Origin: a bacterium
GTDB taxonomy: Bacteria; Sysuimicrobiota; Sysuimicrobiia; Sysuimicrobiales; Humicultoraceae
Direction of reading: 5' to 3'
DNA: 18,587 nt
Assembly: GCA_041497675.1 (NCBI GenBank)
Contig: JBGQGY010000076.1
Location: forward strand, 1 to 18,587
The stretch's first letter is position 1. Each line of letters opens with the position of its first letter. The notes beneath the pieces are model-generated. The model was not told where the DNA came from. It searched no databases and worked only from the letters and a program-made list of their open reading frames with translations. The translations under genes were made by a program, and so were the position numbers. Of the stretch, positions 1-18,587 are shown piece after piece.

Positions 1-974
1 AAGATCGGCACGTTGGCGCCGTCCATCGGATTCAACGCATAGGCGCCGATGAAGCAGCCGTCGCGATCCTTCTCGGTCGAGAGGCGCTCGATGTCCGATT
101 CGCGCGCGGCCTTGAACTTGTAGGCTTCGACCTCGGCGCGGCGATCGGACGTGGTCAGATGGTCGACCAGCGGGTGCTCGGGCGCGAGCACGCAGAAGGT
201 CATGCCGAAGACGGTATCGGGCCGCGTGGTGAAGACACGGAATGCGACGCCCGGATGCCCATTCACCGGAATCCCGAACTCGACGCCCTCGCTGCGGCCG
301 ATCCAGTTGGTCTGCAGCGTTTGCACCCGTTCCGGCCACTCGATCTGGGAGAAGTCAAGCAGTTCATCCGCATACGCCGTGATTTTGAGGAACCATTGCT
401 CGAGATTTTTCTTGATTACCGGCGTGCCACAGCGCTCGCACACGCGGTCCGCGCCGACCACCTGCTCCCGCGCCAGCGTCGTGTTGTCCTTTGGACACCA
501 GTCCACCGGCGCGAGCGCGCGGTAGGCGAGCCCGCGTTCGTGCATCTTGAGGAAGAACCACTGGTTCCACGTGTAGTAGTCGGGCCGGCAGGTGACGACC
601 TCGCGCGGCCAGTCCCACATGGCGCCCATCGAGCGCAGCTGCCGGCGCATCACGTCGATATTGCTCATCGTCCACTTGTAGGGATGGATGCCACGCGAGA
701 TGGCCGCGTTCTCCGCCGGCAGGCCGAAGGCATCGAAGCCCATCGGGAACATCACGTTGTAGCCCCGCATGCGCTTGTAACGGGCCGCGGCGTCCGAGGG
801 CGTCATGGCATACCAGTGCCCGATGTGCAGGTAGTCGCCCGACGGGTATGGGTACATGGTCACGAAGTAGAACTTGGGCCGCGGATCGCCGTCGCGCGCG
901 TGGTGCAGCCCATCGGCCTCCCAACGGGCCTGCCACTTTGGTTCGACGGCGCGCGAATCGTATCTCATCCTCAT
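1..974 (-). CDS. leuS: Leucyl-tRNA synthetase, N-terminal part (runs off the left edge; not in the ORF track)
   Basis: Manual translation from ATG 974 (or ATG 968) gives MRMRYDSRAVEPKWQARWEADG...KFYFVTMYPYPSGDYLHIGHWY, containing the class I HIGH motif. It continues with PMGFDAFGLPAENAA, WCPKDNTTLAREQV...CERCG, MQTNWIGRSEG and VFTTRPDTVFG, all typical of bacterial LeuRS. Confidence 0.97.
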   Translation of the reverse strand, partial: MRMRYDSRAVEPKWQARWEADGLHHARDGDPRPKFYFVTMYPYPSGDYLHIGHWYAMTPSDAAARYKRMRGYNVMFPMGFDAFGLPAENAAISRGIHPYKWTMSNIDVMRRQLRSMGAMWDWPREVVTCRPDYYTWNQWFFLKMHERGLAYRALAPVDWCPKDNTTLAREQVVGADRVCERCGTPVIKKNLEQWFLKITAYADELLDFSQIEWPERVQTLQTNWIGRSEGVEFGIPVNGHPGVAFRVFTTRPDTVFGMTFCVLAPEHPLVDHLTTSDRRAEVEAYKFKAARESDIERLSTEKDRDGCFIGAYALNPMDGANVPI

Positions 975-998
975 CGCAGGGGCCGGCGGCTCAGGACA

Positions 999-1931
999 CT
1001 AGGGCCGGGTCATCACCGGTACCGGGGTAAGCCACCCGTGCCGGTCGGGGATGCGGCCCTCCGTGATGCCAAAGAACTCATCCTGCAGCCGGCGCGTGAT
1101 GGGCCCCCTCCGCCCAGATCCCACGGGGACCTTATCAACGGACCGCACCGGTGTGATCTCGGCCGCGGTTCCAGTGAAGAAGACCTCGTCGGCGACGTAG
1201 AGCATCTCGCGCGGGAGCGGCATCTCCCGGATCTCGAGCCCCAGGTCGCGGCACAGCGCCGTCACCACCATGCGCGTGACGCCGGCCAGGATCGACGCCA
1301 CCAGCGGCGGCGTGTAGATCACGCCGTCGCGCACCAGGAACAGGTTTTCCCCGCTTCCCTCGCTGAGATACCCGTGCACGTCGAGGGCGATCCCTTCCGC
1401 GTACCCGTTGTCCACGGCTTCCATCACGATGAACGCCGAGTTGACGTAGTTCCCGCCGATCTTGCCCATCCCCGGGTGCGTGTCGGGCGCCATGCGCCGC
1501 CACGAACTCACCATGACGTCGACACCCTGCTCGATGGCCTCGGGACCGAGGTAGCGGCCCCACTCGATGGTCATGATGGCCATGTGCAGCGGGGACCGGC
1601 GAGGTTCCACGCTCCAAGATTCCACGCCGCGAAACACCAGGGGGCGTATGTAGCAGGACTGGTGACCGTTCGTGCTGACGGTCTCGAGGCACGCCTTCGA
1701 GAGCTGCTCCGCCGAATAGGGCAACGCCATCCGGAAGATCTTGCATGAATCCTGCAGGCGGCGAATGTGCGGGCTCAGACAGAAGGCCGCGGGGCCGCTC
1801 TGTGTTTCGTAGCACCTGATGCCTTCGAAGACGCTCGATCCATACTGCAGCGCGTGCGCCGCGACGTGGATCTTCGCGTCGTCCCATGGGACGAACTTGC
1901 CGTCAAACCAGATCCGCTCAGACGCCTTCAT
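999..1931 (-). CDS. ilvE: Branched-chain amino acid aminotransferase (fold-type IV PLP enzyme)
   Basis: Motifs HALQYGSSVFEGIRCY, YIRP, catalytic K in GKIGGNY, EGSGEN, ILAGVTR and TGTAAE. SD GGGAGG (1940-1945) lies 8 nt before the ATG. Confidence 0.95.
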   Translation of the reverse strand: MKASERIWFDGKFVPWDDAKIHVAAHALQYGSSVFEGIRCYETQSGPAAFCLSPHIRRLQDSCKIFRMALPYSAEQLSKACLETVSTNGHQSCYIRPLVFRGVESWSVEPRRSPLHMAIMTIEWGRYLGPEAIEQGVDVMVSSWRRMAPDTHPGMGKIGGNYVNSAFIVMEAVDNGYAEGIALDVHGYLSEGSGENLFLVRDGVIYTPPLVASILAGVTRMVVTALCRDLGLEIREMPLPREMLYVADEVFFTGTAAEITPVRSVDKVPVGSGRRGPITRRLQDEFFGITEGRIPDRHGWLTPVPVMTRP

Positions 1932-1963
1932 GTTCTCGCCCTCCCGGGGCTAAATACACCGAT

Positions 1964-1994
1964 GCCGCCCTCATCCCCACAGGACGAAGGCGGC
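1964..1994 (-). terminator. Terminator-like hairpin of the T-box element (no clear U-tract)
   Basis: GCCGCCTTCGTCCT-GTG-GGGATGAGGGCGGC forms a 14-bp stem with 3 G-U pairs. It overlaps the 3' half of the antiterminator, so the two are mutually exclusive. It is followed by ATCGGTGTATTT rather than a U-run. Confidence 0.65.
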
Positions 1995-2014
1995 CTCCGC
2001 GGTACCACCCATGG
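1977..2014 (-). promoter_or_regulatory. T-box antiterminator domain (no Stem I found)
   Basis: Minus strand reads AA-CCATGGG-TGGTACC-GCGGAGG-CCG-CCTTCGT-CCTGTGG. Helix A1 has 7 bp, the 7-nt UGGNACC bulge (N=U, fits discriminator A73) is at 2001-2007, and helix A2 has 7 bp. It lies upstream of ilvE-leuS, which are classic T-box targets. Confidence 0.88.
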
Positions 2015-2034
2015 TTGATGACGGGTGGAACATC

Positions 2035-2109
2035 TGGTGGAGCAGAAGGGAATTGAACCCTCAACCTCCCGCACGCCAAGCGGGCGCTCTCCCGGTGAGC
2101 TACTGCCCC
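2035..2109 (-). tRNA. tRNA-Ala (anticodon GGC), 75 nt, CCA encoded
   Basis: GGGGCAG TA GCTC ACCGGGA GAGC G CCCGC TTGGCGT GCGGG AGGTT GAGGG TTCAATT CCCTT CTGCTCC A CCA forms a full cloverleaf with the G3:U70 alanine identity pair and A73. Confidence 0.95.
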
Positions 2110-2131
2110 ACGCGTCACTCCCAATACACGG

Positions 2132-2161
2132 ATTATATCGGCGCGCTTCGAAGAGCGTCAA
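2132..2161 (-). promoter_or_regulatory. sigma70-type promoter for tRNA-Ala / T-box / ilvE-leuS
   Basis: -35 TTGACG (2156-2161, overlapping the upstream gene's TGA), 18-bp spacer, perfect -10 TATAAT (2132-2137). The predicted start is near 2125, about 15 nt before the tRNA. Confidence 0.85.
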
Positions 2162-3786
2162 GGCGCCTCGTTTGTGACGAGCACCCACCCTGTCGGCATC
2201 TCGAGCAAGATCGTAGGCCGCAGCCGGTTTCGCAGATTGGAATACGATTCGGGTTGAAGGACGCCAAAGACTCGCCCTTGGTGCCAGAGCCGCTCGACGG
2301 TGGCGTCGTCATCCGCGAACTGTATCGGTGGATCGAGCCAGTAGACCAACGGATTCGCTGCGGGCTTGTAGCCGCTGCGGAAGACCAACCGATCGCCTGG
2401 TCGGTAGAGTCGGTTGACGGTTGCGGCCACGGCGCGCCAGGGCCATAGGCGCTCCCAGTGCGTCGCAACGGCCCATCCCAGAACGCCGTAGGCCAGGAGT
2501 GTCCCGGCGCACAGGGCAGCCACGGCCGCGCGTGCGGTCCCTCGCCATGCCAGCGCGGCGAAGACCACGACGGACACCGCGACAACGCTGAGGAATGGCA
2601 CGAGCATCGGGCCATAGAAGACACGCACTTCTGTGGACTGGGATAATAACAGCCAAATATTAGCGCCGACTGCGGGGATGGCGACACCCGTGGTGACCAC
2701 AACCACGGGTCGCAGACCCCGTACGTCGTTCATTGACCGGATCAGCACCCGGGCCAAAAGCACGCACAGCGGTGGGAATAGCGGAAAGAGATAGCGGAAG
2801 ACCTTATCGCCCGGCGAGATCGACAACAGAACAAAGTGGAGACCGGCCCACAGCGCGCACAGGCGCAGCGCCGGCGGGCCCGTTCCAACCAGGCGCCATG
2901 CCTCCTGGACCACCCGCGGCAGCAGCCCAGTCCATGGAAAGGCCCAGATTGCCAGGATCGGTACGTACGCGATCACCGCTTGCCAGTAGGGCAGTGGTGC
3001 GCTCAATACCGGATGGAAGAAGCGTCCGACCCCGATGCCCGAGACGAACAACGCGTCGACGAAAGCCCTGCCATGCCGGAGTCCCTCGACAACGAACCAC
3101 GGAGCGGCGACGAGTGTGAACACGACCGCCCCGGCCGCAACCTGGGACCATCGCCAGTAGCCCACTTTCCCCGACGGAATGAGCATGTCTGCGGTAACGA
3201 CCAATCCGAAGACCGCAACCGCCACCAGGCCCTTGCTGAGAACCGCCGCCGCAATCCATACGCCCGCCAGGAGGGCCGCCCCGGTGTTGCCGCTGGTCCG
3301 GTATCGGAGATAGGCAACAAACCCCAGGGCAAGAAACACCGTGAGGGCGACATCCTGCTGCGGGGAGACGGACTGGTAAAAGCCCAGGAAGCTCGTCCCC
3401 AGCAGCAGCGCCGCAAGCACAGCCTCCTCCTGGCGTGCTGGTTCCGCCAAGCCCAGCCGGGAAAGACGGTAGGTCACCCCCAACAGGACGAGAGAGAGGG
3501 GCAGCTGCCAGATGCGGAGCGCCGCGCCGGTGGGACCGGTAACCCGGAGGACGAGTGCCATCAACCAGAACGTGAGCGGCGGTTTGTCCACGACCCACGA
3601 AGGCGACGGCCTGTGATGCAGTGTGACCCAGTCTCCCGACCGCAAAATTCCCTTCGCGATCTCTCCGAAGAACAGGGCGTCGCCGTCCACGTGCGGCATC
3701 AGGACACTTCCGGCGATCAGGAGGACGTCCAAGACGAGCAGCCCGAGCCAGACCTTCTCCCACCGGCGTGGACCGAACGGCGTCAT
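2158..3786 (-). CDS. ArnT/PMT_2-family (GT-C, GT83/GT39-like) integral membrane glycosyltransferase
   Basis: N-terminal DGD...EIAKGILRSGDW, DKPPLTFWL, LSKG, APWF, FPWTGLL, K-x-FRYLFPLFPP, with many hydrophobic helices. The acceptor substrate is unknown. Confidence 0.85.
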   Translation of the reverse strand: MTPFGPRRWEKVWLGLLVLDVLLIAGSVLMPHVDGDALFFGEIAKGILRSGDWVTLHHRPSPSWVVDKPPLTFWLMALVLRVTGPTGAALRIWQLPLSLVLLGVTYRLSRLGLAEPARQEEAVLAALLLGTSFLGFYQSVSPQQDVALTVFLALGFVAYLRYRTSGNTGAALLAGVWIAAAVLSKGLVAVAVFGLVVTADMLIPSGKVGYWRWSQVAAGAVVFTLVAAPWFVVEGLRHGRAFVDALFVSGIGVGRFFHPVLSAPLPYWQAVIAYVPILAIWAFPWTGLLPRVVQEAWRLVGTGPPALRLCALWAGLHFVLLSISPGDKVFRYLFPLFPPLCVLLARVLIRSMNDVRGLRPVVVVTTGVAIPAVGANIWLLLSQSTEVRVFYGPMLVPFLSVVAVSVVVFAALAWRGTARAAVAALCAGTLLAYGVLGWAVATHWERLWPWRAVAATVNRLYRPGDRLVFRSGYKPAANPLVYWLDPPIQFADDDATVERLWHQGRVFGVLQPESYSNLRNRLRPTILLEMPTGWVLVTNEAP

Positions 3787-3792
3787 CGAGCG

Positions 3793-4329
3793 CTAGTGAG
3801 GAGGGAGCACATCGAAACGGTGATCCTGGCCCCATGGCTGCGCGTCGCCCCTCAAGAGGCGCACAGCATGGTGCAGGATCGGGGCCAGGACATCCAGCCA
3901 CTCGCGAACCGCCTTGGGATTGCCGGGGAGATTGACGATCAGGGTACGCCCACGGACCCCCGCGACGGCCCGCGAGAGCATCGCCAGCGGTGTCTTCGCG
4001 GCCGTCTGCACCCGCGCGGCCTCCACCAACCCGGCCGCCAGACGATCGACCACCGCCAGCGTGGCCTCGGGCGTCACGTCGCGCGGGGCGAAGCCGCTCC
4101 CGCCGGTGGTCAGGACCAGCGCGGCGCCGTCGCGATCGGCGTAGTCGATGAGCCGCGCGCTGATGGCGTCTCGATCATCGGTCAAGACGTCACGCCGGAT
4201 GACCGTGGCCCCCAGACCTGCCAGGACCTCTGCGATCACATCGCCGCTGGTATCCGCGCCCTGTCCGCGCGCCACGGTGTCCGACAGCGTAAGGATGGCC
4301 GCCCGCACGCCGTCGAGCGTCCGGGTCAC
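3793..4329 (-). CDS. MogA/MoaB-family molybdopterin adenylyltransferase
   Basis: Motifs ILTLSD, DTSG, LTTGGSGFAPRDVTPEAT, MLSRAVAG and NLPGNPKAVRE. Start placed at GTG 4329 (GTGA overlap with moaC stop, SD GGAGG) rather than the ORF-track 4428. Confidence 0.92.
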   Translation of the reverse strand: MTRTLDGVRAAILTLSDTVARGQGADTSGDVIAEVLAGLGATVIRRDVLTDDRDAISARLIDYADRDGAALVLTTGGSGFAPRDVTPEATLAVVDRLAAGLVEAARVQTAAKTPLAMLSRAVAGVRGRTLIVNLPGNPKAVREWLDVLAPILHHAVRLLRGDAQPWGQDHRFDVLPPH

Positions 4330-4820
4330 AACGCCTCCCCGCGCCGGTTGTACGTGCCGCTCCGCCCGCCGCTCTTGTGAATCAGGCGTACACGGTCGAT
4401 CGTGATCCCCCGATCCGCGGCCTTGCACATGTCGTAGACGGTCAGCGCCGCCGCGGTCACGGCGACCAGCGCTTCCATTTCGACGCCCGTGCGCCCGGTC
4501 GTCCTCACCGTCGCTTCGATCCTGACCGCCGCCGCATCCGGCGCCGGTTCGACGCGCACCTGCACATCATCGAGCGGCAGCGGATGGCAGAGCGGGATCA
4601 GGTCCGCCGTCTTCTTGGCGGCCATCACTCCCGCCAGCTGCGCGACCGTCAGGACGTCACCTTTCGCCACCTGATTCGTGCGGATCAGCGCCAGCGTCTT
4701 GGGCTGCATGTGGACGTCCGCCCGTGCGACGGCGACGCGAGCCGTTCGCGCCTTCGCCGACACGTCGACCATGCGTGCCCGCCCTCGGCGGTCGACGTGT
4801 GTGAGTCGCGCCCTCTTCAC
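4326..4820 (-). CDS. moaC: Cyclic pyranopterin monophosphate synthase accessory protein MoaC
   Basis: Motifs LTHVD..G.ARMVDVSAK, KGDVL, LIPLCHP, TGVEMEAL, YDMCKA and KSGGRSG. GTG start overlaps the moeA stop. Confidence 0.97.
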   Translation of the reverse strand: MKRARLTHVDRRGRARMVDVSAKARTARVAVARADVHMQPKTLALIRTNQVAKGDVLTVAQLAGVMAAKKTADLIPLCHPLPLDDVQVRVEPAPDAAAVRIEATVRTTGRTGVEMEALVAVTAAALTVYDMCKAADRGITIDRVRLIHKSGGRSGTYNRRGEAL

Positions 4821-6064
4821 AGCAATCGCACCTCAACCTCCGCCCCTGCGGCGAACCCGTCCCCGCCCAACGGCACGACGACGATGCCGTCGGCCTCGGT
4901 GAGCGATGTGAGGATCTGCGAGCCGGCGGGCAGCGGCGCCGCCCAGAACCCGTCGGGGCGCATCTCCAGCTTGACCCGGCGATGATCCTCGCGAGGACCC
5001 GCCGACGGCAGTCGGGACGCCAGACGCGCCCGAACCCGGTGCCATCCGCGCGACGCGGGGTCCATCCCGAGGAGACGTTCCAACACCGGGCGCGCGAACA
5101 GGTCGAAGATGACCAGCGCGGATACGGGGTTCCCGGGCAACCCGATCACCGGCACCGAGCCGGCCGCTGCCAGCACGGTGGGTTTGCCCGGACGCACCGC
5201 GATGCCGTGGACGATGATCCCCGGCGGCCCAAGACGGGCGATGGCATCGGTGACGATGTCTCGCTCGCCGACCGACGACCCGCCGGAGACAAGCACCATG
5301 TCGTAGTCGGCGACGGCCCGGCGCAGCGCGGCTTCGACCGGCGCCAGCTCGTCACGAACGACACCGAGGATCTCAGGGATTCCACCCGAGGCCAGCACGG
5401 CGCCGGCGAGGGCGGCGCCGTTCATATCCCGCACTTTGCCCGGCTGCAGCGGGTCTTCCGCCGCCAGCACCTCATCGCCGGTCGAGAGAATGGCCACGCG
5501 CGGCTGGAGCGTCACCTGCACTCGCGGCCGGCCGATCCCAGCCAGAATCCCCAGGTCGGGCGCGCGAAGGCGGCGCCCTCGCGCAAACACGACCCGACCG
5601 GTGCGGACGTCGGCCCCTGCCGCGACGACGTTGTCCCCGGCCTTCACCGCGCGCTCGACGGCCACCGCGTCCTCGCCGTTCTGCACGTGCTCCTGCATGA
5701 CGACGGCGTCGGCGCCCTGGGGCAGCATCCCTCCGGTGGGAATCCGCACAGCCTCCCCGGACCCGACCGCGATCCCGGCGGGCGCGCCCATCCGGATCTC
5801 GCCCGCGTGACGCAGCCGCGCCGGTGTCTGTTGACTCGCCGTCTCGGTGTCGGCGGCGCGGACGGCCCAGCCGTCCACCAGCGATCGATCAAAGGGGGGC
5901 AGATCGTGGGGTGATACGATGTCTAGCGCGAGCACGCGTCCAAGCGCCTGCACCAGCGGGACATGCTCGGTGCCGCGCGGCGCCACTCGCAGCGCCGCGT
6001 CATACGCGGCCCGAGCTTCTTGTGGGGTGTGCAGCCGGCCGAACGCCTTGGTCGGGGCGGTCAG
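4817..6064 (-). CDS. moeA: Molybdopterin molybdotransferase MoeA (gephyrin-like); probable CTG start
   Basis: Motifs ALGRVLA, PPFDRSLVDGWAV, GADAVVMQE, ILSTGDE, SGGSSVG, RPGKP and LPGNPVS. The ORF-track N-terminal 137 aa overlap kbl and look spurious. Start inferred at CTG 6062-6064 (CTGA overlap with kbl stop, SD GGAGTGAT 6 nt upstream). Confidence 0.93.
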   Translation of the reverse strand: MTAPTKAFGRLHTPQEARAAYDAALRVAPRGTEHVPLVQALGRVLALDIVSPHDLPPFDRSLVDGWAVRAADTETASQQTPARLRHAGEIRMGAPAGIAVGSGEAVRIPTGGMLPQGADAVVMQEHVQNGEDAVAVERAVKAGDNVVAAGADVRTGRVVFARGRRLRAPDLGILAGIGRPRVQVTLQPRVAILSTGDEVLAAEDPLQPGKVRDMNGAALAGAVLASGGIPEILGVVRDELAPVEAALRRAVADYDMVLVSGGSSVGERDIVTDAIARLGPPGIIVHGIAVRPGKPTVLAAAGSVPVIGLPGNPVSALVIFDLFARPVLERLLGMDPASRGWHRVRARLASRLPSAGPREDHRRVKLEMRPDGFWAAPLPAGSQILTSLTEADGIVVVPLGGDGFAAGAEVEVRLL

Positions 6065-7257
6065 GACGAGATCACTCCCAGCGCCGTGCCCGCGCGCTGG
6101 AACGCCGCCAGCGCGCGTTCGAGGTGCTCTACCGTATGCCCGGCTGTCACGATCGTTCGGACGCGCGCCTTGCCCCGGGGGACCGTCGGAAACGCCAGAC
6201 CGACCGCGAACACGCCCTCCTCGAAGAGACGGTCGGAGAACTGCATGGCCCGCGCCTCGTCGCCGATGATGACCGGGGTGATGGGCGTCTCGCTGTTGCC
6301 CGTGTCGAACCCGAGCCGGCGCAACCCGTCTTTGAAGAACCGGGTGTTGTCCCACAGACGCCGGATCAGATCGGGTTCGTGCTGCACTAGCCGGACGGCG
6401 GCAAGCGCAGACGCCGCGACCGACGGTGGGTGAGAGGTGGAGAAGAGCAGCGGCCGCGCACGATGCATCAGCCATTCGATCAGCGCCCGGGATCCCGCGA
6501 CGTAGCCGCCGAGTCCGGCGAACGCCTTCGAGAGCGTTCCCACCTGGACGTGCACCCGGCCGTGCATCCCGAAGTGGTCGACGGTGCCGCGGCCGTCCTT
6601 CCCGACGACGCCGCTGGCGTGCGCGTCGTCGACCATCATGATCGCGCCATACTCTTCCGCGGCCGCCACCAGATCGGGGAGCGGCGCGATGTCACCGTCC
6701 ATGCTGAATACGCCGTCGGTGATCAACAGCACGCGCCGCGCGCCTCGTGATTCTGCGAGCATCCGGCGGGCCGCGCCGACATCCTTGTGGGGATAGATCT
6801 TCTTGTCGGCGCCTGAGAGGCGGCACCCGTCGATGAGGCTCGCGTGGTTCAACTCGTCGCTGACCACGACGTCGCCCTTCTCGAGGATCGCGGCGACCGT
6901 GCCGGCATTGGCGCTGAACCCGGACTGGTACAGCAGCGTGGCCTCGGTGTGTTTGAAGGCGGCGAGTTCCGTCTCGAGCTCCTGGTGGATGCTCATGTTG
7001 CCGGCGATCGTCCTGACGGCACCCGATCCCACACCGAACCGCGCCACGGCCTCCAACGCCGCGGCTTTCAACGCGGGGTGATTGGCCAGCCCCAGATAGT
7101 TGTTGGAACAGAGGTTGATGACCTCGCGGCCGTCGTAGCGCGCCACCGCCTCCTGGGGGCTCTCGAGCAATCGCGGCCACCGCCAGACGCCGCGCGTCTT
7201 CGCGTCGGCCAGCAGCTCCTCGACAAATATCAGGGGGTTGGCGTGCTCAACTTTCAA
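6061..7257 (-). CDS. kbl: 2-amino-3-ketobutyrate CoA ligase (glycine C-acetyltransferase; AONS/BioF family)
   Basis: Motifs NLCSNNYLGL, SDELNHASLIDG, TDGVFSMDGD, DDAH, GTLSKA and RARPLLFST. It is adjacent to tdh, and its TTG start overlaps the tdh 3' end. Confidence 0.9.
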   Translation of the reverse strand: MKVEHANPLIFVEELLADAKTRGVWRWPRLLESPQEAVARYDGREVINLCSNNYLGLANHPALKAAALEAVARFGVGSGAVRTIAGNMSIHQELETELAAFKHTEATLLYQSGFSANAGTVAAILEKGDVVVSDELNHASLIDGCRLSGADKKIYPHKDVGAARRMLAESRGARRVLLITDGVFSMDGDIAPLPDLVAAAEEYGAIMMVDDAHASGVVGKDGRGTVDHFGMHGRVHVQVGTLSKAFAGLGGYVAGSRALIEWLMHRARPLLFSTSHPPSVAASALAAVRLVQHEPDLIRRLWDNTRFFKDGLRRLGFDTGNSETPITPVIIGDEARAMQFSDRLFEEGVFAVGLAFPTVPRGKARVRTIVTAGHTVEHLERALAAFQRAGTALGVISS

Positions 7258-8344
7258 TGGTCAGGATCACCTTCCCCGCGTTGCCGGATTCCAACAGCGA
7301 GAATGCCTCGGCGAAGCGCTCCAACGGCAGCCGGTGTGTGATCACCGGCGTGATATCCAGCCCGCGCCGCAGCAGCCGGCTCATCTGCTCCCAGGTCTCC
7401 CAGATGCGGCGGCCAAAGATGCCCTGGATCCGCACCGCGTTGAAGATCACGTCGTTGGCGAGGTCGAGCTCCACCGGTGCGCCCGGCAAACCCAGCAGGC
7501 TCACCCACCCCCCGCGGCGCACCGCCCGCAGCGCGTCAGCGATGCCTCCGGGATGGCCTGACATTTCCAAAACCACGTCGGCGCCCTGACCGTCGGTTAG
7601 CTCGTGCACGCCGGCGGCGACATTCTCGGCGCGCGAGTCCAGCACCAGATCGGCCCCCATCGTCCGCGCCAGCGACAACCGCGCGGTGTTCACGTCGGAG
7701 GCCACCACGACCGCGGCGCCGGCCATCTTGCAGATCGCGATCGCCATCAGCCCGATCGGACCGCACCCCGTGATGAGGACCGCCTGCGCCGTCAGCTCGG
7801 TCGCCAACGCCGTGTGGACGGCGTTGCCCAGCGGATCCATCACGGCCGCGACATCTGTCGGGATGTCGGCGTGCAGCCGCCAGGCGTTGCGGGCCGGCAT
7901 CCGGACGTACTCGGCAAACGCGCCGTCGCGGTCGATCCCGATGATCTCGAGACGCTCGCAAATATGTGGATCGCCCCGCCGGCAGTTGTGACACAGACCG
8001 CACGCGACGTGGCACTCGCCGGCGATCCGGTCGCCCACGGCGACCTCGGTGACGTCGTCACCCAAGGCGACAACGGTACCGGTGAACTCGTGGCCGATCA
8101 CACGCGGCGGGTGGACATGCGCCCGCGCCCACGGATCCCAGCGATAGATGTGGAGGTCGGTGCCGCAAATCCCGGTTGCGCTCACCCGGACCAGCACTTC
8201 GCCGCGGCGTGGTTCGGGGACCGGCACGTCGGCGATCTGGCACCCCGGCCCCGGCGACGCCTTGACCAGTGCGCGCATGCGCCGGGGAAGCGCCGCGACC
8301 GCGCCCGGGGCCTCGGTCGCCGGTTGGGTTCCGCGTGGTGTCAC
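7247..8344 (-). CDS. tdh: L-threonine 3-dehydrogenase (Zn-dependent MDR)
   Basis: Motifs ICGTDLHIY.WD.W, GHEF, C-x2-C-x2-C-x7-C structural Zn site, DPLGNAVHT, GCGPIG and GIFGRRIWETW. It pairs with kbl. The start is uncertain: GTG 8344 or ATG 8278 (MRALVK). Confidence 0.93.
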   Translation of the reverse strand: MTPRGTQPATEAPGAVAALPRRMRALVKASPGPGCQIADVPVPEPRRGEVLVRVSATGICGTDLHIYRWDPWARAHVHPPRVIGHEFTGTVVALGDDVTEVAVGDRIAGECHVACGLCHNCRRGDPHICERLEIIGIDRDGAFAEYVRMPARNAWRLHADIPTDVAAVMDPLGNAVHTALATELTAQAVLITGCGPIGLMAIAICKMAGAAVVVASDVNTARLSLARTMGADLVLDSRAENVAAGVHELTDGQGADVVLEMSGHPGGIADALRAVRRGGWVSLLGLPGAPVELDLANDVIFNAVRIQGIFGRRIWETWEQMSRLLRRGLDITPVITHRLPLERFAEAFSLLESGNAGKVILTIES

Positions 8345-8422
8345 GAGTGACGCTTCGACGCAGCGCGCCGCGGAGTCCTGCGGCAGGAGCCTCCGGGGTC
8401 AGGCACCGAAGGAGGACGGATC

Positions 8423-8917
8423 GTGTATACAGTCCATGCGGTGGTCGCCCAGGTGTTTGGGCTGCCCGTGTGTCCTCCACGGGGAACCGGCCTGCTGGGG
8501 AGCATTTTTCACCAACAAACCCTCTTCCACCCCCTGATTGTGCATTTTCCGATCGCGTTGTGGCTGACGAGCGCGCTGTTCGACGTCTTTCACGTGATCA
8601 ATCCCAACCGCTTCCACACCCGGGTCTCCCAGCACCTGATCGGGCTTGGCCTGCTGGCGGCGGTCGTCTCGATCAACATGGGCTTCTGCGACGCCATTCC
8701 GCTCGTGAAGGAAGGCGTGGGGCAGAAGTTTGTGGACCGGCACGCGGCACACCAAGTCTGGGCGCTGGCGGCCACGGCGTTCTACGCGGTCTCGTTTACC
8801 ATCCGCTGGAGGCGTCCGGACATGGGCCGCCTCGCGGCCGTCATGCTGCTCGCGGTCGGCGCCGTGCTGATCGCCGTGACCGGGTATCTCGGCGGAGAAG
8901 TCCGGCTGGTGATGTAG
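8423..8917 (+). CDS. DUF2231-like membrane protein
   Basis: HPLIVHFPIAL motif, a later His (RHAAH), C-terminal TGYLGGE and about 4 hydrophobic helices. SD GGAGGA precedes the GTG. Confidence 0.8.
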   Translation: MYTVHAVVAQVFGLPVCPPRGTGLLGSIFHQQTLFHPLIVHFPIALWLTSALFDVFHVINPNRFHTRVSQHLIGLGLLAAVVSINMGFCDAIPLVKEGVGQKFVDRHAAHQVWALAATAFYAVSFTIRWRRPDMGRLAAVMLLAVGAVLIAVTGYLGGEVRLVM

Positions 8918-8922
8918 CATCC

Positions 8923-9639
8923 ATGCCACAGCGCATCCTGGTCGTGGACGACGAACCCCACATCGTGGAGCTGGTGCGCTACAATCTGCAGCAGGACGGC
9001 TATGAGGTACTGACCGCAGGCGACGGCGAAACTGCCCTGAGCAAGAGCGCGTCCGAGCGGCCCGACCTGATCATCCTCGATCTGATGCTCCCCGGTGTTG
9101 ACGGTTTGGAAGTCTGCCGCCGGCTGCGCCGCGAGTCTGCGGTGCCGATCATCATGCTCACGGCCCGCGGTGGCGAGGTCGAACGCATCGTCGGGCTCGA
9201 TCTGGGCGCCGACGACTACGTGATCAAACCCTTCAGCCCGCGCGAGCTGGTCGCGCGGGTGCGCGCGGTCTTGCGCCGGCACGCGCGCGAGGTCGCGCCG
9301 CCGACCGCCGGGCCGCTGTGCGTGGGCCCGCTCCGGCTGGACGCGGGCACGCATGACGTGATGCTGGCGGGTCGCCGGGTTGACCTGACCGCGCGCGAGT
9401 TCGAGTTATTGCGGCTCTTCATGCGACATCCCAACAGAGTCTTCACCCGGGACTTCTTGCTCGAGCACCTGTGGGGACACGACTTCTACGGGAGCACCCG
9501 CACCGTGGACATGCATGTTAGCCGGCTGCGTGAGAAAATTGAAGACGATCCTGGCGAGCCGCGGTTCATCGTGACCGTGCGCGGGGTCGGCTACAAGATG
9601 CGCGCGGTCGAAGAGACGCGCAAGAAGGTCCGCGCATGA
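8923..9639 (+). CDS. OmpR/PhoB-family response regulator (PhoP/WalR-like)
   Basis: From ATG 8923: RILVVDDE, LDLMLP, MLTAR, GADDYVIKPFSPREL, and winged helix TRTVDMHVSRLREKIE...TVRGVGY. The ORF-track start at 8269 is too far upstream. Confidence 0.95.
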   Translation: MPQRILVVDDEPHIVELVRYNLQQDGYEVLTAGDGETALSKSASERPDLIILDLMLPGVDGLEVCRRLRRESAVPIIMLTARGGEVERIVGLDLGADDYVIKPFSPRELVARVRAVLRRHAREVAPPTAGPLCVGPLRLDAGTHDVMLAGRRVDLTAREFELLRLFMRHPNRVFTRDFLLEHLWGHDFYGSTRTVDMHVSRLREKIEDDPGEPRFIVTVRGVGYKMRAVEETRKKVRA

Positions 9640-11417
9640 GACCCCGGTCGATCCGCGCCAGGCTGACGACATCGTACGTCCTGCTCGTCTCCGTCTGCCT
9701 CGTGCTCGCCGCGACCTACGTCACCTGGCGGTTGCAGGCGCAATATACGAATACGTATCGCCGTGTGATCCTCACCCAATCGATCCTGATCGGCCGGATG
9801 TTGGATTGGTACGCGCACGAGGGGCTGCCGCCGGGCCGTCTCGAGCAGCTGGCCCAGCAGTTCCGGTGGCGGCCCGATGCCTCAATCCGCGTCGTCCCCT
9901 TCGCCGAGTTGACGGCATCGACCGCGCCCGAGTTGCGGGCGGTCGCCGAGTGTGTCACGACGACCGTGCGGCAGGGCCGCGTTGACCGCGAAAGCCTCTC
10001 GAAGTGCCCCAGCCAGTCGCTCCGACCCGATGACGTCACGGGCAGTCCCCGCGTCTTTGCCGCAGCGCCGGTCATGAAGGACGGCACGCCGGTGGCCGCC
10101 GTCCAGGTCTCCGTGCCGACCGGGTGGGTGTGGGTGCAGCTCCAGGGCATGCTTCCGCAATTGGGTCTGGCGCTGGCGATTGGATTGGTCGTGGCGGCGA
10201 TTCTCGGCGCCCGCTTCGCGCGCAGCCTGGTCGAGCCGATCGCCGAGCTCACGCAGGTGGCCTCCCAAATGAGCGCGGGGGATCTCAGCCGCGCGGTACG
10301 GCCGCGGGGCACTGACGAGATCGGCCGTCTCGGGGAGATGTTCAACCGGATGGCCGACCAACTGCAGGGCACGATCGCCACCCTGTCCGCCGAGCGCACC
10401 CGCCTCGCCGCCATCGTGTCCGGGATGGTCGATGGCGTGATCGCCACCGACCGCCGGGGCGAAATTCTCCTGGCCAACCGCGCCGCCTCGGAGATGCTTG
10501 GGACGGGGGCGGCGAGAGGCAACGGCGGTACCGGCCAGCCCGTCCCCGGTCCTCGCCTCAGGGCCCTCTTCTCGGACGCGGCGACCTACGGGCGTGTCAG
10601 CGCCGAGGAACTGCCGCCCGCCGAAGTGGGCGACCGGCTGGTCGAGGTGCACTGCGCGCCCATTGTGGGCGACGGGACGGCGGCCATCGGCGCGGTGGCG
10701 GTGCTCCGCGACGTCACCGAGCTGCGGCGACTCGAGCGCGCGCGCCGCGAGCTGACGGCGAACGTCTCACACGAGCTGCGGACCCCGCTCACGTCGATCA
10801 AGGGGTTTGCCGAAACGCTGCTCGCCGGCGCGGTCCGAGATGAATCGACGGCGCGGCACTTCCTCGAGATCATCGACAACGAGGCCAACCGTCTCGTCAA
10901 ACTCGTCGATGACCTCCTCGACCTCTCGCGGCTGGAGAGCAAGCGTATCAGCCTCGAACTCGGTCAGGTGGACGTGGGCAGGCTGGTCGAGGACACGGTG
11001 GCCCGCCTCCGACCCTTGGCCGGCGCGCGCGACGTCGCGCTGCAGCCCGCGGCGCAGGATGTCGTCGCCATCGCCGACCGCGACCGTCTGGCGCAGGTCC
11101 TGACGAATCTCCTGGAAAACGCCATCAAGTTCACACCCGACGACGGACGCATCGCCGTGGGTTGGCGAGCGGCCAACGGCGAGGTGGAGGTCTCCGTGGC
11201 CGACACGGGCGCGGGGATCGCTGAGGCCGACCTGCCGCACGTCTTCGAACGCTTCTATAAAGCCGACCGGGCCCGCGCGGCGACCTCGGGCGGCAGCGGT
11301 CTGGGACTCGCCATCACCAAGCACATCGTCGAGGCGCACGGCGGCCGGATCCGCGTCAGCAGCGAACCCGGCCGGGGAACGACGTTTACCTTTACGCTGC
11401 CGCGCGACGGTGATTGA
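9636..11417 (+). CDS. Two-component sensor histidine kinase (2 TM, HAMP, PAS, HisKA, HATPase; PhoR/WalK-like)
   Basis: HAMP (DEIGRLGEMFNRMA), PAS (MVDGVIATD..G.ILLAN), H-box VSHELRTPLTSIKG, N-box NLLENAIKFT, DTGAGI, FERFYK and GSGLGLAI. ATGA overlap with the regulator. Confidence 0.96.
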   Translation: MRPRSIRARLTTSYVLLVSVCLVLAATYVTWRLQAQYTNTYRRVILTQSILIGRMLDWYAHEGLPPGRLEQLAQQFRWRPDASIRVVPFAELTASTAPELRAVAECVTTTVRQGRVDRESLSKCPSQSLRPDDVTGSPRVFAAAPVMKDGTPVAAVQVSVPTGWVWVQLQGMLPQLGLALAIGLVVAAILGARFARSLVEPIAELTQVASQMSAGDLSRAVRPRGTDEIGRLGEMFNRMADQLQGTIATLSAERTRLAAIVSGMVDGVIATDRRGEILLANRAASEMLGTGAARGNGGTGQPVPGPRLRALFSDAATYGRVSAEELPPAEVGDRLVEVHCAPIVGDGTAAIGAVAVLRDVTELRRLERARRELTANVSHELRTPLTSIKGFAETLLAGAVRDESTARHFLEIIDNEANRLVKLVDDLLDLSRLESKRISLELGQVDVGRLVEDTVARLRPLAGARDVALQPAAQDVVAIADRDRLAQVLTNLLENAIKFTPDDGRIAVGWRAANGEVEVSVADTGAGIAEADLPHVFERFYKADRARAATSGGSGLGLAITKHIVEAHGGRIRVSSEPGRGTTFTFTLPRDGD

Positions 11418-11420
11418 CGC

Positions 11421-11439
11421 CCTACCCCGTAGGGGTAGG
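11421..11439. terminator. Hairpin between convergent kinase and livF genes, possible bidirectional terminator
   Basis: CCTACCCC-GTA-GGGGTAGG is a perfect 8-bp inverted repeat filling the 22-bp gap. There is no U-tract. Confidence 0.55.
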
Positions 11440-12150
11440 CTACCCGCCTAGATAGGCCTTCTTCACCTCGGGGTTCTCACGCAATTCGGCGGCCGGGCCT
11501 TGCAGGATGATCTCACCCGTCTGCAGCACGTAGGCCCGGCGCGCAATCGACAGCGCCATGTATGCGTTTTGCTCGACGAGCAGCACGGTACCGCCCTGGG
11601 CGTTGATGCTCTGGATGGTCTGGAAGATCGACTCGACCAGTACCGGCGCCAGACCCATCGAGGGCTCGTCCAGCAGCAGGATCCGGGGACGTGTCATCAT
11701 CGCGCGACCGATGGCCAGCATCTGCTGCTCGCCACCTGAGAGCGTACCGGCGACCTGAACGATGCGCTCGCGGAGCCTCGGGAAGAGAGTCAGGACCCGT
11801 TCCATGTCGTCCCGGATGCCCACCTGATCGTTACGCCGGAACGCGCCCATCTCGAGATTCTCCCGAACGGTCAGCCGGCCGAAGACACGGCGGCCCTCGG
11901 GCGAGTGACCGATCCCGAGCGCCACGATCTCGTGTGGGGGCCGGTGATCGATGCGCTCCCCCGCCAGCCGGATGTGCCCCTGCCGGCCGCGCTGGATCCC
12001 GGAGATGGTCCGGAGCGTGGTCGTCTTGCCGGCGCCGTTGCTGCCGAGCATCGCGACGATCTCGCCTTCTTCTACCGCGAGCGAGATCCCGCGCAGGGCA
12101 TGGATGTGCCCGTAGTACACGTGAAGATCTTCGATATCGAGCAGCGCCAT
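11440..12150 (-). CDS. livF: Branched-chain amino acid ABC transporter ATP-binding protein
   Basis: Walker A GSNGAGKTT, PEGRRVF, LSGGEQQMLAIGRA, LLLDEPS, LVEQN and C-terminal AYLG. Confidence 0.95.
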   Translation of the reverse strand: MALLDIEDLHVYYGHIHALRGISLAVEEGEIVAMLGSNGAGKTTTLRTISGIQRGRQGHIRLAGERIDHRPPHEIVALGIGHSPEGRRVFGRLTVRENLEMGAFRRNDQVGIRDDMERVLTLFPRLRERIVQVAGTLSGGEQQMLAIGRAMMTRPRILLLDEPSMGLAPVLVESIFQTIQSINAQGGTVLLVEQNAYMALSIARRAYVLQTGEIILQGPAAELRENPEVKKAYLGG

Positions 12151-12156
12151 GGTCGC

Positions 12157-12966
12157 CTAGCGCACCGCAGCGAGTCCTTTGCCGCTGCCCAGATACGCCT
12201 CGATCACCTTGGGGTCGTTCTGAACAATCGCGGGCGTGCCTTCGGCGATCTTTGCGCCGTAATCCAACACCGTCACCCGATCGGAGATCCCCATCACCAC
12301 GCGCATGTTGTGCTCGATCAACAGGATCGTCAGGCTGAGATCGGTGCGCAGCCTGGTGAGAAACGCCATCAGGTTGACCGCCTCGGTCGGCGACATGCCC
12401 GCCGTCGGTTCGTCCAGCAAGAGCAGCTTCGGCTGGCTGGCCAGCGCCCGGGCGATCTCGAGTCTCCGCTGGTCGCCGTAGGGTAGATTCTTTGACAGCT
12501 CGTTGCCCCGGCCGGTCAGCCCGACGAGATCGAGGAGCTGGGCCGCGCGCCGCAGCGCTTCGGCTTCGACCCGGGTGAATTTCGGCGTCCGCAGGAGCGC
12601 ATCCCAGGCCGACAGCGGCAGCCGGCAGTGCATACCCACCAGGATATTTTCGATCACCGTCATGTTGCCAAACAGCCTGATGTTCTGGAAGGTCCGGCAC
12701 ATGCCGAGCGCGGTGATCTGGTCGGGCCGTAGGCCCACGAGCTCCTGCCCGTTGAATTTCACCGAGCCTTCCTCAGGAAGGTAGATCCCGGTGAAGACGT
12801 TGAACAGCGTGGTTTTTCCGGCGCCGTTGGGTCCGATGATGCTCGCGATCACGCCGGGTTCCAACGCAAAGTCCACCCGGTTGACCGCCACCAGCCCGCC
12901 GAACCGCTTCGTCACGCCCGCGACTTCGAAGAGCGGTCGGTCGGCCGCGCCCCCTTCACCCTGCAT
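12157..12966 (-). CDS. livG: Branched-chain amino acid ABC transporter ATP-binding protein
   Basis: KRFGGL, GPNGAGKTT, RTFQNIRLF, LPYGDQRRLEIARAL, LLLDEP and IEHNM. Start set at ATG 12966 after a strong SD GGAGGAGG (ORF track gives 13002). Confidence 0.95.
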   Translation of the reverse strand: MQGEGGAADRPLFEVAGVTKRFGGLVAVNRVDFALEPGVIASIIGPNGAGKTTLFNVFTGIYLPEEGSVKFNGQELVGLRPDQITALGMCRTFQNIRLFGNMTVIENILVGMHCRLPLSAWDALLRTPKFTRVEAEALRRAAQLLDLVGLTGRGNELSKNLPYGDQRRLEIARALASQPKLLLLDEPTAGMSPTEAVNLMAFLTRLRTDLSLTILLIEHNMRVVMGISDRVTVLDYGAKIAEGTPAIVQNDPKVIEAYLGSGKGLAAVR

Positions 12967-14242
12967 GCGACGAACCTCCTCCCGCCGCTCCCTCGCGGAC
13001 ATCCTCCAGTTCGATCTGACGCCGGGCAGACGGCAGTATCCCCTGCGACCGGTAGATCATCATCAAGATCAATATCACCCCGAATACCATGCGTTCATAC
13101 TTCGCCGGCTCCAGCTGGGTGGGCAGGCTGGCCAATGGATAGCCGAAGATCGTTACCCCGGCCGCCTTCCAAGCGTTCAGCGTGAGCGAGAACTGCTTGA
13201 GGACCTGCAGGTTGAGGATGGTGACCAGGCTCGCGCCCAGAATGGCCCCCGGAATGCTCCCGACCCCGCCCAAAATGATCATCGACAGCACGCCGATTGA
13301 CTCCAAGAACGTGAAGCTCTCGGGGTTGATGAACACCTGCTTGCTGGCGAACAGGACACCCATCGCGCCGGCGAACGACGCGCCCGCGGCAAATGCCAGG
13401 AGTTTGCTGCGGACCAGCGGGACGCCCATGGCGATGGCGGCGGACTCATCCTCGCGGATCGCTTCCCACGCCCGCCCAATGTGGGATTCTTTGAGGCGCT
13501 GGGTGACGACGATGACCGCGCCCACGACGAGCAGCACCAGGAAGTAGAAGTACAGCGGGTAGAGGGCCGCCGGGGTCGCCGCCAGGCCGAGCCGTTCGAC
13601 GAAGGGCGCGAAGAAGAGCGGCGGGCGGCCGACCGGCGTGATCCCGATGGGACCGTTGGTGAAGTTGATCGGCTTGTCCAGGTTGTTCGCCAGGACGCGG
13701 ACGACCTCCCCGAAGCCCAGGGTCACGATGGCGAGATAGTCGCCCCGGACGCGCAGTACCGGCAACCCCAGCAGAATGCCGGTGACGGCGGCCGTGACCA
13801 CCGCCAGCAGGAGGAAGACGAAGAACCACCAGCCGCCCAGCGGAAAGATGTTGGTGGCACCCGGGAAGATCTTCAGCACCTGGGGCGACCCCACGATGGC
13901 CCACGTGTAGGCGCCGACCGCGTAGAACGCGACGTAACCCAGGTCGAGCAGTCCGGCGATCCCGACCACGATGTTCAGCCCAAGCGCCAGCGCGACGAAG
14001 ATCCCGATCTGCGTGGCGACTTCGAGGTAGAAGGTGTTCTGGGTGCCGATGTACGGCATCAGCAGTCCCAACATCGCGACGAGGCCTGCCGTTCGCGCCC
14101 CGCGGGGCACCTTGATCATGAAGAGCAACGGGAGCGACGCGACGAACAAGAGGAACGCCGGCAGCGACCTCGGCACATGGGTGACCAGGTACGTCGTGCC
14201 GAGGGTGTAGGCGAGGAGAAACAGCGGGCTAAATTTTTTCAC
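12956..14242 (-). CDS. livM: Branched-chain amino acid ABC transporter permease
   Basis: LGLNIVVG.AGLLDLGYVAFYAVGAY, LRVRGDYLAIVTLGFGE, GRAWEAIREDE and IILGG.GSIPG. Start at GTG 14242 (SD GAGGT) or GTG 14254. Confidence 0.94.
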   Translation of the reverse strand: MKKFSPLFLLAYTLGTTYLVTHVPRSLPAFLLFVASLPLLFMIKVPRGARTAGLVAMLGLLMPYIGTQNTFYLEVATQIGIFVALALGLNIVVGIAGLLDLGYVAFYAVGAYTWAIVGSPQVLKIFPGATNIFPLGGWWFFVFLLLAVVTAAVTGILLGLPVLRVRGDYLAIVTLGFGEVVRVLANNLDKPINFTNGPIGITPVGRPPLFFAPFVERLGLAATPAALYPLYFYFLVLLVVGAVIVVTQRLKESHIGRAWEAIREDESAAIAMGVPLVRSKLLAFAAGASFAGAMGVLFASKQVFINPESFTFLESIGVLSMIILGGVGSIPGAILGASLVTILNLQVLKQFSLTLNAWKAAGVTIFGYPLASLPTQLEPAKYERMVFGVILILMMIYRSQGILPSARRQIELEDVREGAAGGGSSHAG

Positions 14243-15200
14243 GTACGACCTCACCCAGCAATCCCCGCGGGCGGAACATCAGGATCAAGATCAGCACCAT
14301 GAAGGCGAAGATGTCCTTGTACTCGGCCCCGAACGCCCCGCCAGTCAGCAGCGACATGTACGACGCGGCGAACGTTTCCAGCATCCCGAGCACGAGTCCG
14401 CCCAGCATCGCGCCCGGGATGTTGCCGATGCCGCCGAGCACCGCGGCCGTAAACGCTTTGAGCCCCGGAGTGAACCCCGTGTAGGGGTTGATCGTGCCGT
14501 ACTGCACGCCGAATAGCGCCCCCGCCGCGCCACCCATCGCCCCCCCGATCAGGAACGTCAGCGAGATCATCTGGTTCACATTGATCCCCATCAGCCCGGC
14601 GGTGCTCTGGTCCTCCGCGACCGCCCTGATGGCCTTGCCGAGCTTGGTCCGGTTGACGAACAGCGTCAGCGCGACCAGCATCAGGATCGCCGAGACCATC
14701 ACCAGAATCGCCTTGACCGAGATGTCGGTCTCGCCAAACAGCGTGAGGCGGACGTCGAAGAACGCAATCGTCGGATACGTCAGGAAGAACGCGTTGCGCC
14801 AAAAGCTCTCAAACAGCCGGATCGCGTCCTGCAGGAAGAACGACACACCGATCGCCGAGATCAGCGGGACCAGCCGCGGGGCGTTGCGCAGCGGCCTGTA
14901 TGCGACGCGCTCGACGGTCACGGCCAGCAGCCCGCTGACGACCATCGCCGCGCCGATGATCATCACCAGCAGGACCAGCGGGTGATACCCGGCCAGCGTG
15001 CCCTTGGCCTGGAGGATCAACAAGACCTCCGCGCCGACAAAGGCCCCCGTCACGAAGATCTCGCTGTGCGCAAAGTTGATCATCTGGAGGACGCCGTAGA
15101 CCATCGTGTAGCCGAGGGCGATGAGCGCGTACACGAATCCCAAAGCGATGCCGTCGAGGACGACCGTCGGGAAGATGCCGATCAGGATGTCCCATTCCAT
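14229..15200 (-). CDS. livH: Branched-chain amino acid ABC transporter permease
   Basis: YALIALGYTMVYGV..INFAH, ERVAYRPLR, GKAIRAVAED, GLKAFTAAVLGGIGNIPGA and RPRGLLG. Confidence 0.95.
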   Translation of the reverse strand: MEWDILIGIFPTVVLDGIALGFVYALIALGYTMVYGVLQMINFAHSEIFVTGAFVGAEVLLILQAKGTLAGYHPLVLLVMIIGAAMVVSGLLAVTVERVAYRPLRNAPRLVPLISAIGVSFFLQDAIRLFESFWRNAFFLTYPTIAFFDVRLTLFGETDISVKAILVMVSAILMLVALTLFVNRTKLGKAIRAVAEDQSTAGLMGINVNQMISLTFLIGGAMGGAAGALFGVQYGTINPYTGFTPGLKAFTAAVLGGIGNIPGAMLGGLVLGMLETFAASYMSLLTGGAFGAEYKDIFAFMVLILILMFRPRGLLGEVVREKI

Positions 15201-15278
15201 CTTGGCTCCGACTATTCACCGTGCCGACAGGGAAGCCCTCCGCCGCCGTGCCCCGTGAATCCCGGCCACCACAACGGA

Positions 15279-15310
15279 GAAGGGAGGGGTCGAGATTGCC
15301 CCCTCCCTTC
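15279..15310 (-). terminator. Stem-loop downstream of the binding-protein gene (partial terminator or mRNA stabiliser)
   Basis: GAAGGGAGGGG-10 nt-CCCCTCCCTTC is a perfect 11-bp stem in the livK-livH gap, followed on the minus strand by TCCGTTGT. Confidence 0.65.
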
Positions 15311-15336
15311 GTCAGTTCAGACTTCGGTTCCGGCTG

Positions 15337-17739: not shown

Positions 17740-17761
17740 GGTCCCGGCAGGAGGGTCTTCG

Positions 17762-18586: not shown

Positions 18587-18587
18587 G

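Follow-up and report, generated by a model that had tools for sequence, protein, structure and literature searches.

According to our analysis, a clade of Sysuimicrobiota (CSP1-3) carries, upstream of ilvE and leuS, a predicted leucine (CUC) T-box riboswitch that holds a tRNA-Ala(GGC) gene in the apical part of its Stem III, and this conserved nesting of a tRNA within a T-box, shown here by the alignment of leaders from related genomes, is the new item. The stretch of DNA under study, hereafter the window, comprises 18,587 nt (positions 1 to 18,587 of the metagenome-type contig JBGQGY010000076.1, assembly GCA_041497675.1), and its leader is probably a truncated derivative of this leucine (CUC) T-box, the remnant of which would now serve as a tRNA-Ala unit and a leaky attenuator before ilvE-leuS.

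The minus strand of the window reads promoter, tRNA-Ala(GGC), T-box antiterminator/terminator, ilvE, and leuS, with no Stem I (Table 1). All the features that a preliminary description of this strand had listed, i.e., the promoter, the tRNA-Ala(GGC), the paired antiterminator, the competing hairpin, ilvE, and leuS, are present; the leader and trailer to which it gave about 15 and 20 nt exist as elements but measure 22 nt from the -10 box to the tRNA and 25 nt from CCA to GGTGG. The promoter is the single promoter-like site found in a scan of 1700 to 2500, for which shuffled sequences average 0.2, and its -35 box shares bases with the stop codon (TGA) of a PMT_2-type glycosyltransferase ORF (2158 to 3786). 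As had been claimed, the leader embeds a genuine tRNA gene, which is recognized by both ARAGORN and Rfam and displays all the features expected of a bacterial tRNA-Ala, namely the cloverleaf, the GGC anticodon, G3:U70, A73, and CCA. The reading of GGC as a displayed glycine codon was rejected, as the downstream genes are Leu-related and the UGGU bulge is, as we take it, unfit for the discriminator base of tRNA-Gly. Also rejected was the annotation of ilvE as a D-alanine transaminase, which would have tied the gene to tRNA-Ala, since the ilvE_I profile scores 400 bits against 127 bits, below the cutoff, for the D-amino-acid transaminase profile. Elsewhere in the window, the plus strand between 8269 and 11417 encodes a two-component pair made of an OmpR-type response regulator and a HAMP-PAS histidine kinase; about 220 residues precede the receiver domain in the ORF of the regulator, the start of which is probably over-called.

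Table 1. Elements of the ilvE-leuS leader and adjoining genes in the window, in the order of transcription
Feature	Position	Strand	Details and evidence
Sigma-70-type promoter TTGACG-18-TATAAT	2132..2161	-	-35 box at 2161-2156, 18-nt spacer, -10 box at 2137-2132; 11/12 matches
First bases of the leader and deletion junction	2119..2131	-	Promoter-tRNA spacing and alignment gap
Stem III base, 5' strand GUGACGCGU, immediately 5' of the tRNA	2110..2118	-	Aligns with GAC(N)GACGCGU of the relatives
tRNA-Ala(GGC) with G3:U70, A73, and encoded CCA	2035..2109	-	ARAGORN; Rfam tRNA, 63.2 bits
Stem III base, 3' strand ACCCGUCAU	2018..2026	-	Aligns with (C)GCGUCYGUC of the relatives, followed by the conserved AACC
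Lineage-specific hairpin, CCACCCGU (2028-2021) with AUGGGUGG (2012-2005)	2005..2028	-	MFE folds
T-box antiterminator	1978..2013	-	A1 at 2013-2008/1983-1978, bulge UGGUACC at 2007-2001, A2 at 2000-1994/1990-1984
Competing terminator hairpin (1994-1964) and weak U-rich tail UAUUUA (1956-1951)	1951..1994	-	Fold
Shine-Dalgarno GGGAGGG (1945-1939) and ilvE, branched-chain amino acid transaminase	999..1945	-	ORF 999-1931; NCBIfam ilvE_I, 400 bits
leuS, N-terminal 324 codons, running off the window	3..974	-	Profile match

That the element derives from a T-box, as already recognized in the preliminary description, is borne out by its core, its UGGN bulge, and its antiterminator/terminator pair, and by homologous full leaders in relatives. 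The core GGTGGTACCGCG, at 1998-2009 on the minus strand, is the sole match in the window when at most one mismatch is allowed (0.15 expected); in the chance control, at least one match was found in 30/200 shuffles. The antiterminator is paired throughout, with six contiguous pairs in A1 (CAUGGG/CCUGUG) and seven out of seven in A2 (GCGGAGG/CCUUCGU) enclosing the bulge UGGUACC, and the competing hairpin, 14 bp long, reuses the 3' strands of both A2 and A1; the 110-nt fold has a z score of -3.7. Constraint folding did not force the true antiterminator, and only MFE structures were used from it. In the 17 aligned sequences the bulge is invariant (17/17), the antiterminator cells are paired in 99.4% of cases, and the main helix of the terminator is paired in 94.9%; being essentially invariant, the antiterminator provides no covariation evidence. 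A simple terminator scanner called no terminator in the window or in the relatives L004 and L005, and the U-run of the relatives starts 5 to 8 nt past the main hairpin. Judging from these elements, the attenuator is probably of the transcriptional class.

What the window lacks is Stem I, together with any score from the T-box model. Searches with RF00230 returned no match at E ≤ 10 between 1850 and 2450, where a match abutting the tRNA had been expected and the tRNA itself was found, nor at E ≤ 1 over the whole window, and neither GAACUCR nor AGYAGUARG occurs upstream of the core. The glycosyltransferase gene, considered earlier as a possible hiding place for a Stem I, holds no RF00230 match and neither motif. 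Stem I and Stem II are both absent, and the base strands of Stem III remain around the tRNA. The CCCGTCA that had been taken for an F-box-like motif is not an F-box but belongs to Stem III, as the 3' strand of the basal helix within which relatives enclose the tRNA. The element of the window is thus best called a T-box remnant.

To place this remnant among related leaders, the genome collection was scanned with IlvE, with 4-kb flanks, yielding 599 matched stretches and 562 confirmed relatives, the best 80 of which were kept (loci designated by L and a number). The records are mostly metagenome-assembled genomes labeled as Sysuimicrobiota (CSP1-3), "Armatimonadota," Chloroflexota, or Acidobacteriota, Sysuimicrobiota being the name given to CSP1-3 according to the available text of PMC11604079. 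The 700 nt upstream of each ilvE were scanned for tRNAs, for the T-box core, and for the specifier context GAACUCR, which was chosen as the specifier pattern, while two stricter specifier-loop patterns misclassified most loci. Following the usual T-box convention, we assume that the position after GAA is the specifier, so that CUC plus a purine represents a leucine codon; the placement agrees with the Rfam alignments of L017 and L009.

Among these best 80 of 562 relatives, 42 carry the same T-box core at a distance of 68 to 254 nt from the beginning of the downstream ilvE match, a recurrence that exceeds chance. All but one of these 42 have a LeuS match of at least 57% identity after ilvE, the exception being L040 with only 40%, and none of the 37 loci devoid of both core and tRNA has such a match. 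The nested arrangement, in which GAACUCR, tRNA-Ala(GGC), and the core follow one another, is present in 18/80 loci (L002 to L015, L019, L021, L024, and L049); 16 of them belong to the Sysuimicrobiota (CSP1-3) clade of the window, and L021 and L024 are more distant. The conservation of tRNA plus antiterminator, for which the preliminary description had proposed an alignment of leaders from related genomes, is therefore found, in the form of a tRNA embedded in a T-box. In a further 17/80 loci, all of them Chloroflexota, tRNA-Ala(CGC) and/or tRNA-Ala(GGC) lies upstream of a complete T-box, and five loci (L017, L018, L020, L022, and L044) have a T-box without a tRNA within 700 nt, L044 starting inside a tRNA at the contig edge. 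A tRNA and a core without a specifier occur only in the window and in L079, considering the 80 loci and the window together. The contig of L001 ends inside the tRNA and is missing the upstream part, and L023 has the tRNA but no core.

In the Chloroflexota loci (L016, L026, L027, L029, L034 to L036, L038, L040, L042, L043, L047, L050, L052, L053, L059, and L061), tRNA-Ala(GGC) lies 214 to 326 nt 5' of the Leu T-box core, and tRNA-Ala(CGC) also falls within the scanned 700 nt in 16 of the 17, being located further upstream in L059. With the tRNA-Ala outside the leader in these loci and inside it in the nested ones, the linkage of tRNA-Ala, T-box, and ilvE-leuS spans phyla. Two further peculiarities of leaders were observed. 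In L021 (440-620, an ANGP1 genome), about 250 nt of direct and inverted repeats with an AGTAGAC/GTCTACT-like unit separate the T-box terminator from ilvE. In most of L002 to L015 and L019, a small GC-rich hairpin (e.g., CUGUCGGGC...GCCCG) intervenes between promoter and Stem I, within the first ~40 nt past the -10 box; the window retains only the first bases of this hairpin.

The nested relatives display a constant order: promoter, Stem I, Stem II and IIA/B, the base of Stem III around the tRNA, antiterminator/terminator, ilvE, and leuS. Their T-box leader is complete: the specifier loop displays CUC, and the K-turn, Stem II/IIA-B, and Stem III are all present. In the alignment of 17 sequences, the helix that closes around the tRNA comprises 10 pairs, five of which are changed on both sides, and 89.7% of its cells are paired; the four stems of the tRNA are 100% paired with compensatory changes, G3:U70 is found in 17/17 sequences, and CCA is invariant. 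For the whole structure, 0/500 shuffles reach the observed covariation score, and controls in which the structure was slid along the alignment are 44 to 58% paired. The duplex energy of the Stem III base, which ranges from -12.5 to -21.9 kcal/mol in the 16 clade relatives, is matched by at most 6/200 shuffles in only 10 of the 16, and the argument for this helix is hence carried by the covariation count, since shuffle controls are weak in GC-rich RNA. On this comparative evidence, the nested tRNA looks like a real, selected tRNA gene placed atop a real Stem III. A shorter variant is seen in L013 (3703-3963): relative to L012, 64 nt are gone from the distal Stem I, including the AG bulge and the distal loop, and the loss falls between two GCGGCC repeats. 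The discriminator and the nested tRNA persist in L013, as do the K-turn and the specifier, and its Rfam T-box score is 49.1 bits; it resembles a T-box with an "ultrashort Stem I," unless it is a mere variant of the assembly.

In the Rfam copy used, RF00230 has a gathering score of 93 bits, and E-value-mode searches were needed for this reason; at the gathering threshold, Rfam reported only tRNAs in the window and 39 loci and was uninformative for T-boxes. In E-value mode, the full model was matched by L017, which has no tRNA, with 78.2 bits (E = 2e-17), and by L009 (model positions 1-219) with 57.2 bits (E = 6e-12) and 92 unaligned bases in the Stem III loop. The L009 alignment runs from GGACAGAU through this 92-nt insert to GUCUGUC, and the insert consists of the tRNA and short linkers. 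Full-model matches of 46 to 65 bits, whose coordinates enclose the tRNA, were obtained for L003, L019, L002, L013, and L024, and the T-box matches of L036, L042, L027, and L016 lie downstream of their tRNAs. No match was returned for L001, L079, or the edge-truncated L021. The ten loci matching RF00230 score 46 to 78 bits, with E values between 5e-7 and 2e-17, and none reaches the gathering score of 93 bits, so that standard annotation would miss these T-box leaders, whether nested or not.

Against this background, the leader of the window differs from that of its relatives by what is missing. Its promoter and tRNA are 52 nt apart versus 187 to 255 nt in the 16 clade relatives (the promoter match of L049 needed a relaxed pattern). 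An identical TTGACG-18-TATAAT is called in L004 and L005, and the promoter stretch TTGACGCT...GATATAATC is common to the window and the relatives. In the multiple alignment, the window is devoid of all Stem I, Stem II, and IIA/B columns, amounting to ~190 nt, and homology resumes with GGGAGTGACGCGT, directly 5' of the tRNA, which aligns with GCGGACTGACGCGT of the relatives, i.e., the 5' strand of the Stem III base; likewise, CCCGTCATCAACC of the window aligns with GCGTCTGTCAACC of the relatives. The alignment shows an in-situ deletion of ~190 nt, after which the initial ~12 nt of the leader run directly into the 5' strand of the Stem III base. A quick IlvE tree places the window and L001 as sisters (support, 99) inside a clade of 17 rows (support, 99), the other 15 rows of which are all nested. 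A deletion from a leader with a full Stem I, the outcome that the preliminary description had named as fatal to its own reading, is accordingly what was encountered: relatives have the full Stem I, and the window lost it. As judged from alignment and tree, the absence of Stem I and Stem II in the window is a deletion in one terminal lineage, and the comparison shows its tRNA to be a Stem III insert that survived, not a substitute sensor.

The available text of a review (PMC7583486) and of the TBDB paper describes the purine string as part of the aminoacylation-sensing discriminator and Stem III as flanked by RRRxG and AA. In the window, the purine string 5' of Stem III reads AUUGG versus RRGxG (R-A-G-x-G) in the aligned columns of the relatives, U occupying columns 8 and 9 in place of the otherwise invariant A and G; a shifted GGGA run remains, and the AA of the AACC flanking Stem III on its 3' side is present. 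Only 6+2 pairs are left in the Stem III base, whose duplex energy is -8.1 kcal/mol, and 175/200 shuffles are as good. The CCACCC/GGGUGG hairpin is confined to the window and L001, being absent from the linkers of L002 to L015, L019, and L049, and in the folding model it would tie up the UGG of the bulge together with the 5' side of A1. The sister locus L001 has a mismatch in A2 (6/7 paired) at a pair that is C-G in 17/17 aligned sequences, and its terminator retains all 14 pairs via G-U and A-U changes. These few changes of the remnant point to a relaxed constraint on tRNA sensing, with the hairpin presumably retained; the intact antiterminator of the window could be still in use, or the deletion could merely be recent.

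The orphan discriminator might nonetheless be a working minimal sensor, in which the Stem III remnant and the antiterminator catch the ACCA of any uncharged A73 tRNA (Leu, Ile, Val, or Ala), and the operon would then answer general amino acid starvation without anticodon reading. This was the fallback of the preliminary description, and the intact antiterminator with its UGGU bulge agrees with it, as does a second, independent fusion of tRNA and discriminator in L079; it is weakened, however, by the altered purine string, despite the shifted GGGA, and by a Stem III base no better than shuffles, and it would also have to accommodate a hairpin masking the bulge, the A2 mismatch of L001, and the statement in the available text of PMC7583486 that Stem I is obligate. 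We deem it unlikely. The same low probability is given to a broader version, according to which tRNA and discriminator form a working module, the folding of the nascent tRNA or its processing by RNase P and at the 3' end setting the timing or outcome of the switch, and the Stem-I-less window and L079 are functional minimal attenuators reporting bulk uncharged A73 tRNA or tRNA-processing capacity instead of leucine.

That the short leader stems from faulty assembly or binning, or from a rare variant in an organism that truly has the full nested T-box, is rather improbable. The contig of the nearest relative, L001, stops within the tRNA, a hint of assembly trouble or strain variation at this spot, and length variants of the leader recur in metagenome-assembled genomes, the 64-nt Stem I loss between the GCGGCC repeats of L013 being a case in point. 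On the other hand, the junction lies about 10 nt upstream of the repeat boundary of the tRNA, within the homology of the Stem III 5' strand, and homology on both sides of the tRNA, together with a native promoter and native synteny, makes a chimeric join at the tRNA repeat unlikely. The gene order of L004 equals that of the window (MoeA, a MoCF-domain gene, a glycosyltransferase with 48% identity, the leader, ilvE, and leuS), and an assembly join is disfavored by the homology of the promoter, the flanks, and the gene order with those of relatives. Moreover, the changes proper to the remnant, namely the CCACCC hairpin and the shifted spacer, are common to the window and L001, which fits evolution after the deletion.

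Most improbable of all is the proposal that the embedded tRNA replaces the sensor domain in a new attenuator architecture, where read-through is set by the way this tRNA folds or is processed, or by a cis action of its ACCA on UGGU: the tRNA of the window does end in ACCA, complementary to the bulge, and adjoins the discriminator both there and in L079, but ACCA suits any A73 tRNA, tRNA-Leu included, the loss of Stem I is limited to a terminal lineage, a CCA end that still bears its unprocessed 3' extension should fail the steric gate at the end of A2, and in 18/80 loci the same tRNA lies in the Stem III position between a complete Stem I/specifier and the core, so that it did not evolve as a replacement. 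A steric gate at the end of A2 is described in the available text of PMC7583486.

If the leaders are read as a nested leucine T-box and its truncated derivative, their working can be outlined as follows. In the intact relatives, uncharged tRNA-Leu would set read-through by the standard Leu T-box decision, and each transcript, terminated or read through, would yield a tRNA-Ala precursor because the nested tRNA is upstream of the decision point; excision of the tRNA would later cut the sensor from the message and set the 5' end of the mRNA. In the window, the strong former T-box promoter would now drive tRNA-Ala(GGC) directly, and RNase P and 3' trimming would free the tRNA. The terminator hairpin, aided by the CCACCC/GGGUGG hairpin, would form by default, as the orphan discriminator can no longer recruit tRNA-Leu via the specifier, and ilvE-leuS would be expressed by read-through of an attenuator that is predicted to be leaky on account of its poor U-tail (UAUUUA). 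A leader locked toward termination would be awkward, since leuS is normally essential and no second promoter was seen between 1700 and 2500.

Decay of the leader, with the sensor half lost and the tRNA and terminator kept, occurred twice independently. In the quick IlvE tree, L079 is the sister of the nested L024 (support, 97) among Chloroflexota, and its orphan state therefore arose independently of that of the window. L079 (3700-4000) lacks Stem I and has a promoter-like TTGACA, a tRNA-Ala(CGC) without encoded CCA, and, after 16 nt, an intact T-box antiterminator/terminator; between its terminator and ilvE there is a possible TATAAT. In L024, the order is tRNA(CGC), the 5' half of the T-box, tRNA(GGC), and the 3' half of the T-box, and recombination between the two tRNA genes could have made the L079 form. 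L023 (3826-4000, Candidatus Sysuimicrobium calidum) may have gone further in this loss: it has no T-box core, and its tRNA-Ala(GGC) is followed by a plain hairpin with a U-run and then by ilvE-leuS.

Taken alone, the Stem-I-less T-box of the window is a deletion product and holds no new sensing principle; the interest lies in the conserved nesting of tRNA in T-box and in its repeated decay, not in a new sensor. A full-text literature search, mostly without subscription journals, found no description of a whole tRNA gene nested in a T-box stem, nor is one mentioned in the available text of the TBDB paper, the 2008 survey (PMC2494555), or the review (PMC7583486). A riboswitch that reads tRNA-Leu while housing a tRNA-Ala gene in its own stem is an unusual packing of two RNA functions. 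It raises the questions of whether RNase P cuts before or after the decision, whether processing sets the 5' end and stability of the ilvE-leuS message, and whether an otherwise wasted, constitutively made leader transcript is used as a source of tRNA.

Compared with the Leu T-box described by RF00230, the window is alike in the core, the UGGN bulge, the A1/A2 antiterminator, the terminator, and the downstream leuS and ilvE, but it differs in having no Stem I, Stem II, or IIA/B; both the window and its relatives differ in holding a whole tRNA gene inside Stem III and in that all scores are under 93 bits. Reduced T-boxes include the glyQS type, without Stem II, and the actinobacterial ileS type, with an ultrashort Stem I, as stated in the available text of PMC7583486. 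They resemble the window in that modules are lost and the discriminator is kept; however, they keep the specifier loop, of which the window has none, and L013, with only the distal Stem I lost, is a closer analogue of the ultrashort type than the window is. Lineage-specific insertions in the discriminator are exemplified by stem Sa of staphylococcal glyS (available text of PMC9177973), and insertions in Stem III and A2, with no tRNA among them, are mentioned in the available text of PMC7583486. As with stem Sa, extra RNA in the discriminator is tolerated here in one lineage, but the insert is an independently functional gene, the tRNA of another amino acid. Such a nested tRNA should be cut out by RNase P, whereby the riboswitch would be severed. 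In the thrU-tyrU-glyT-thrT-tufB operon of Escherichia coli, one promoter serves tRNAs and a downstream mRNA, which are parted by processing. The remnant of the window resembles such tRNA-mRNA units and differs from them by the remains of a T-box antiterminator/terminator set between tRNA and mRNA.
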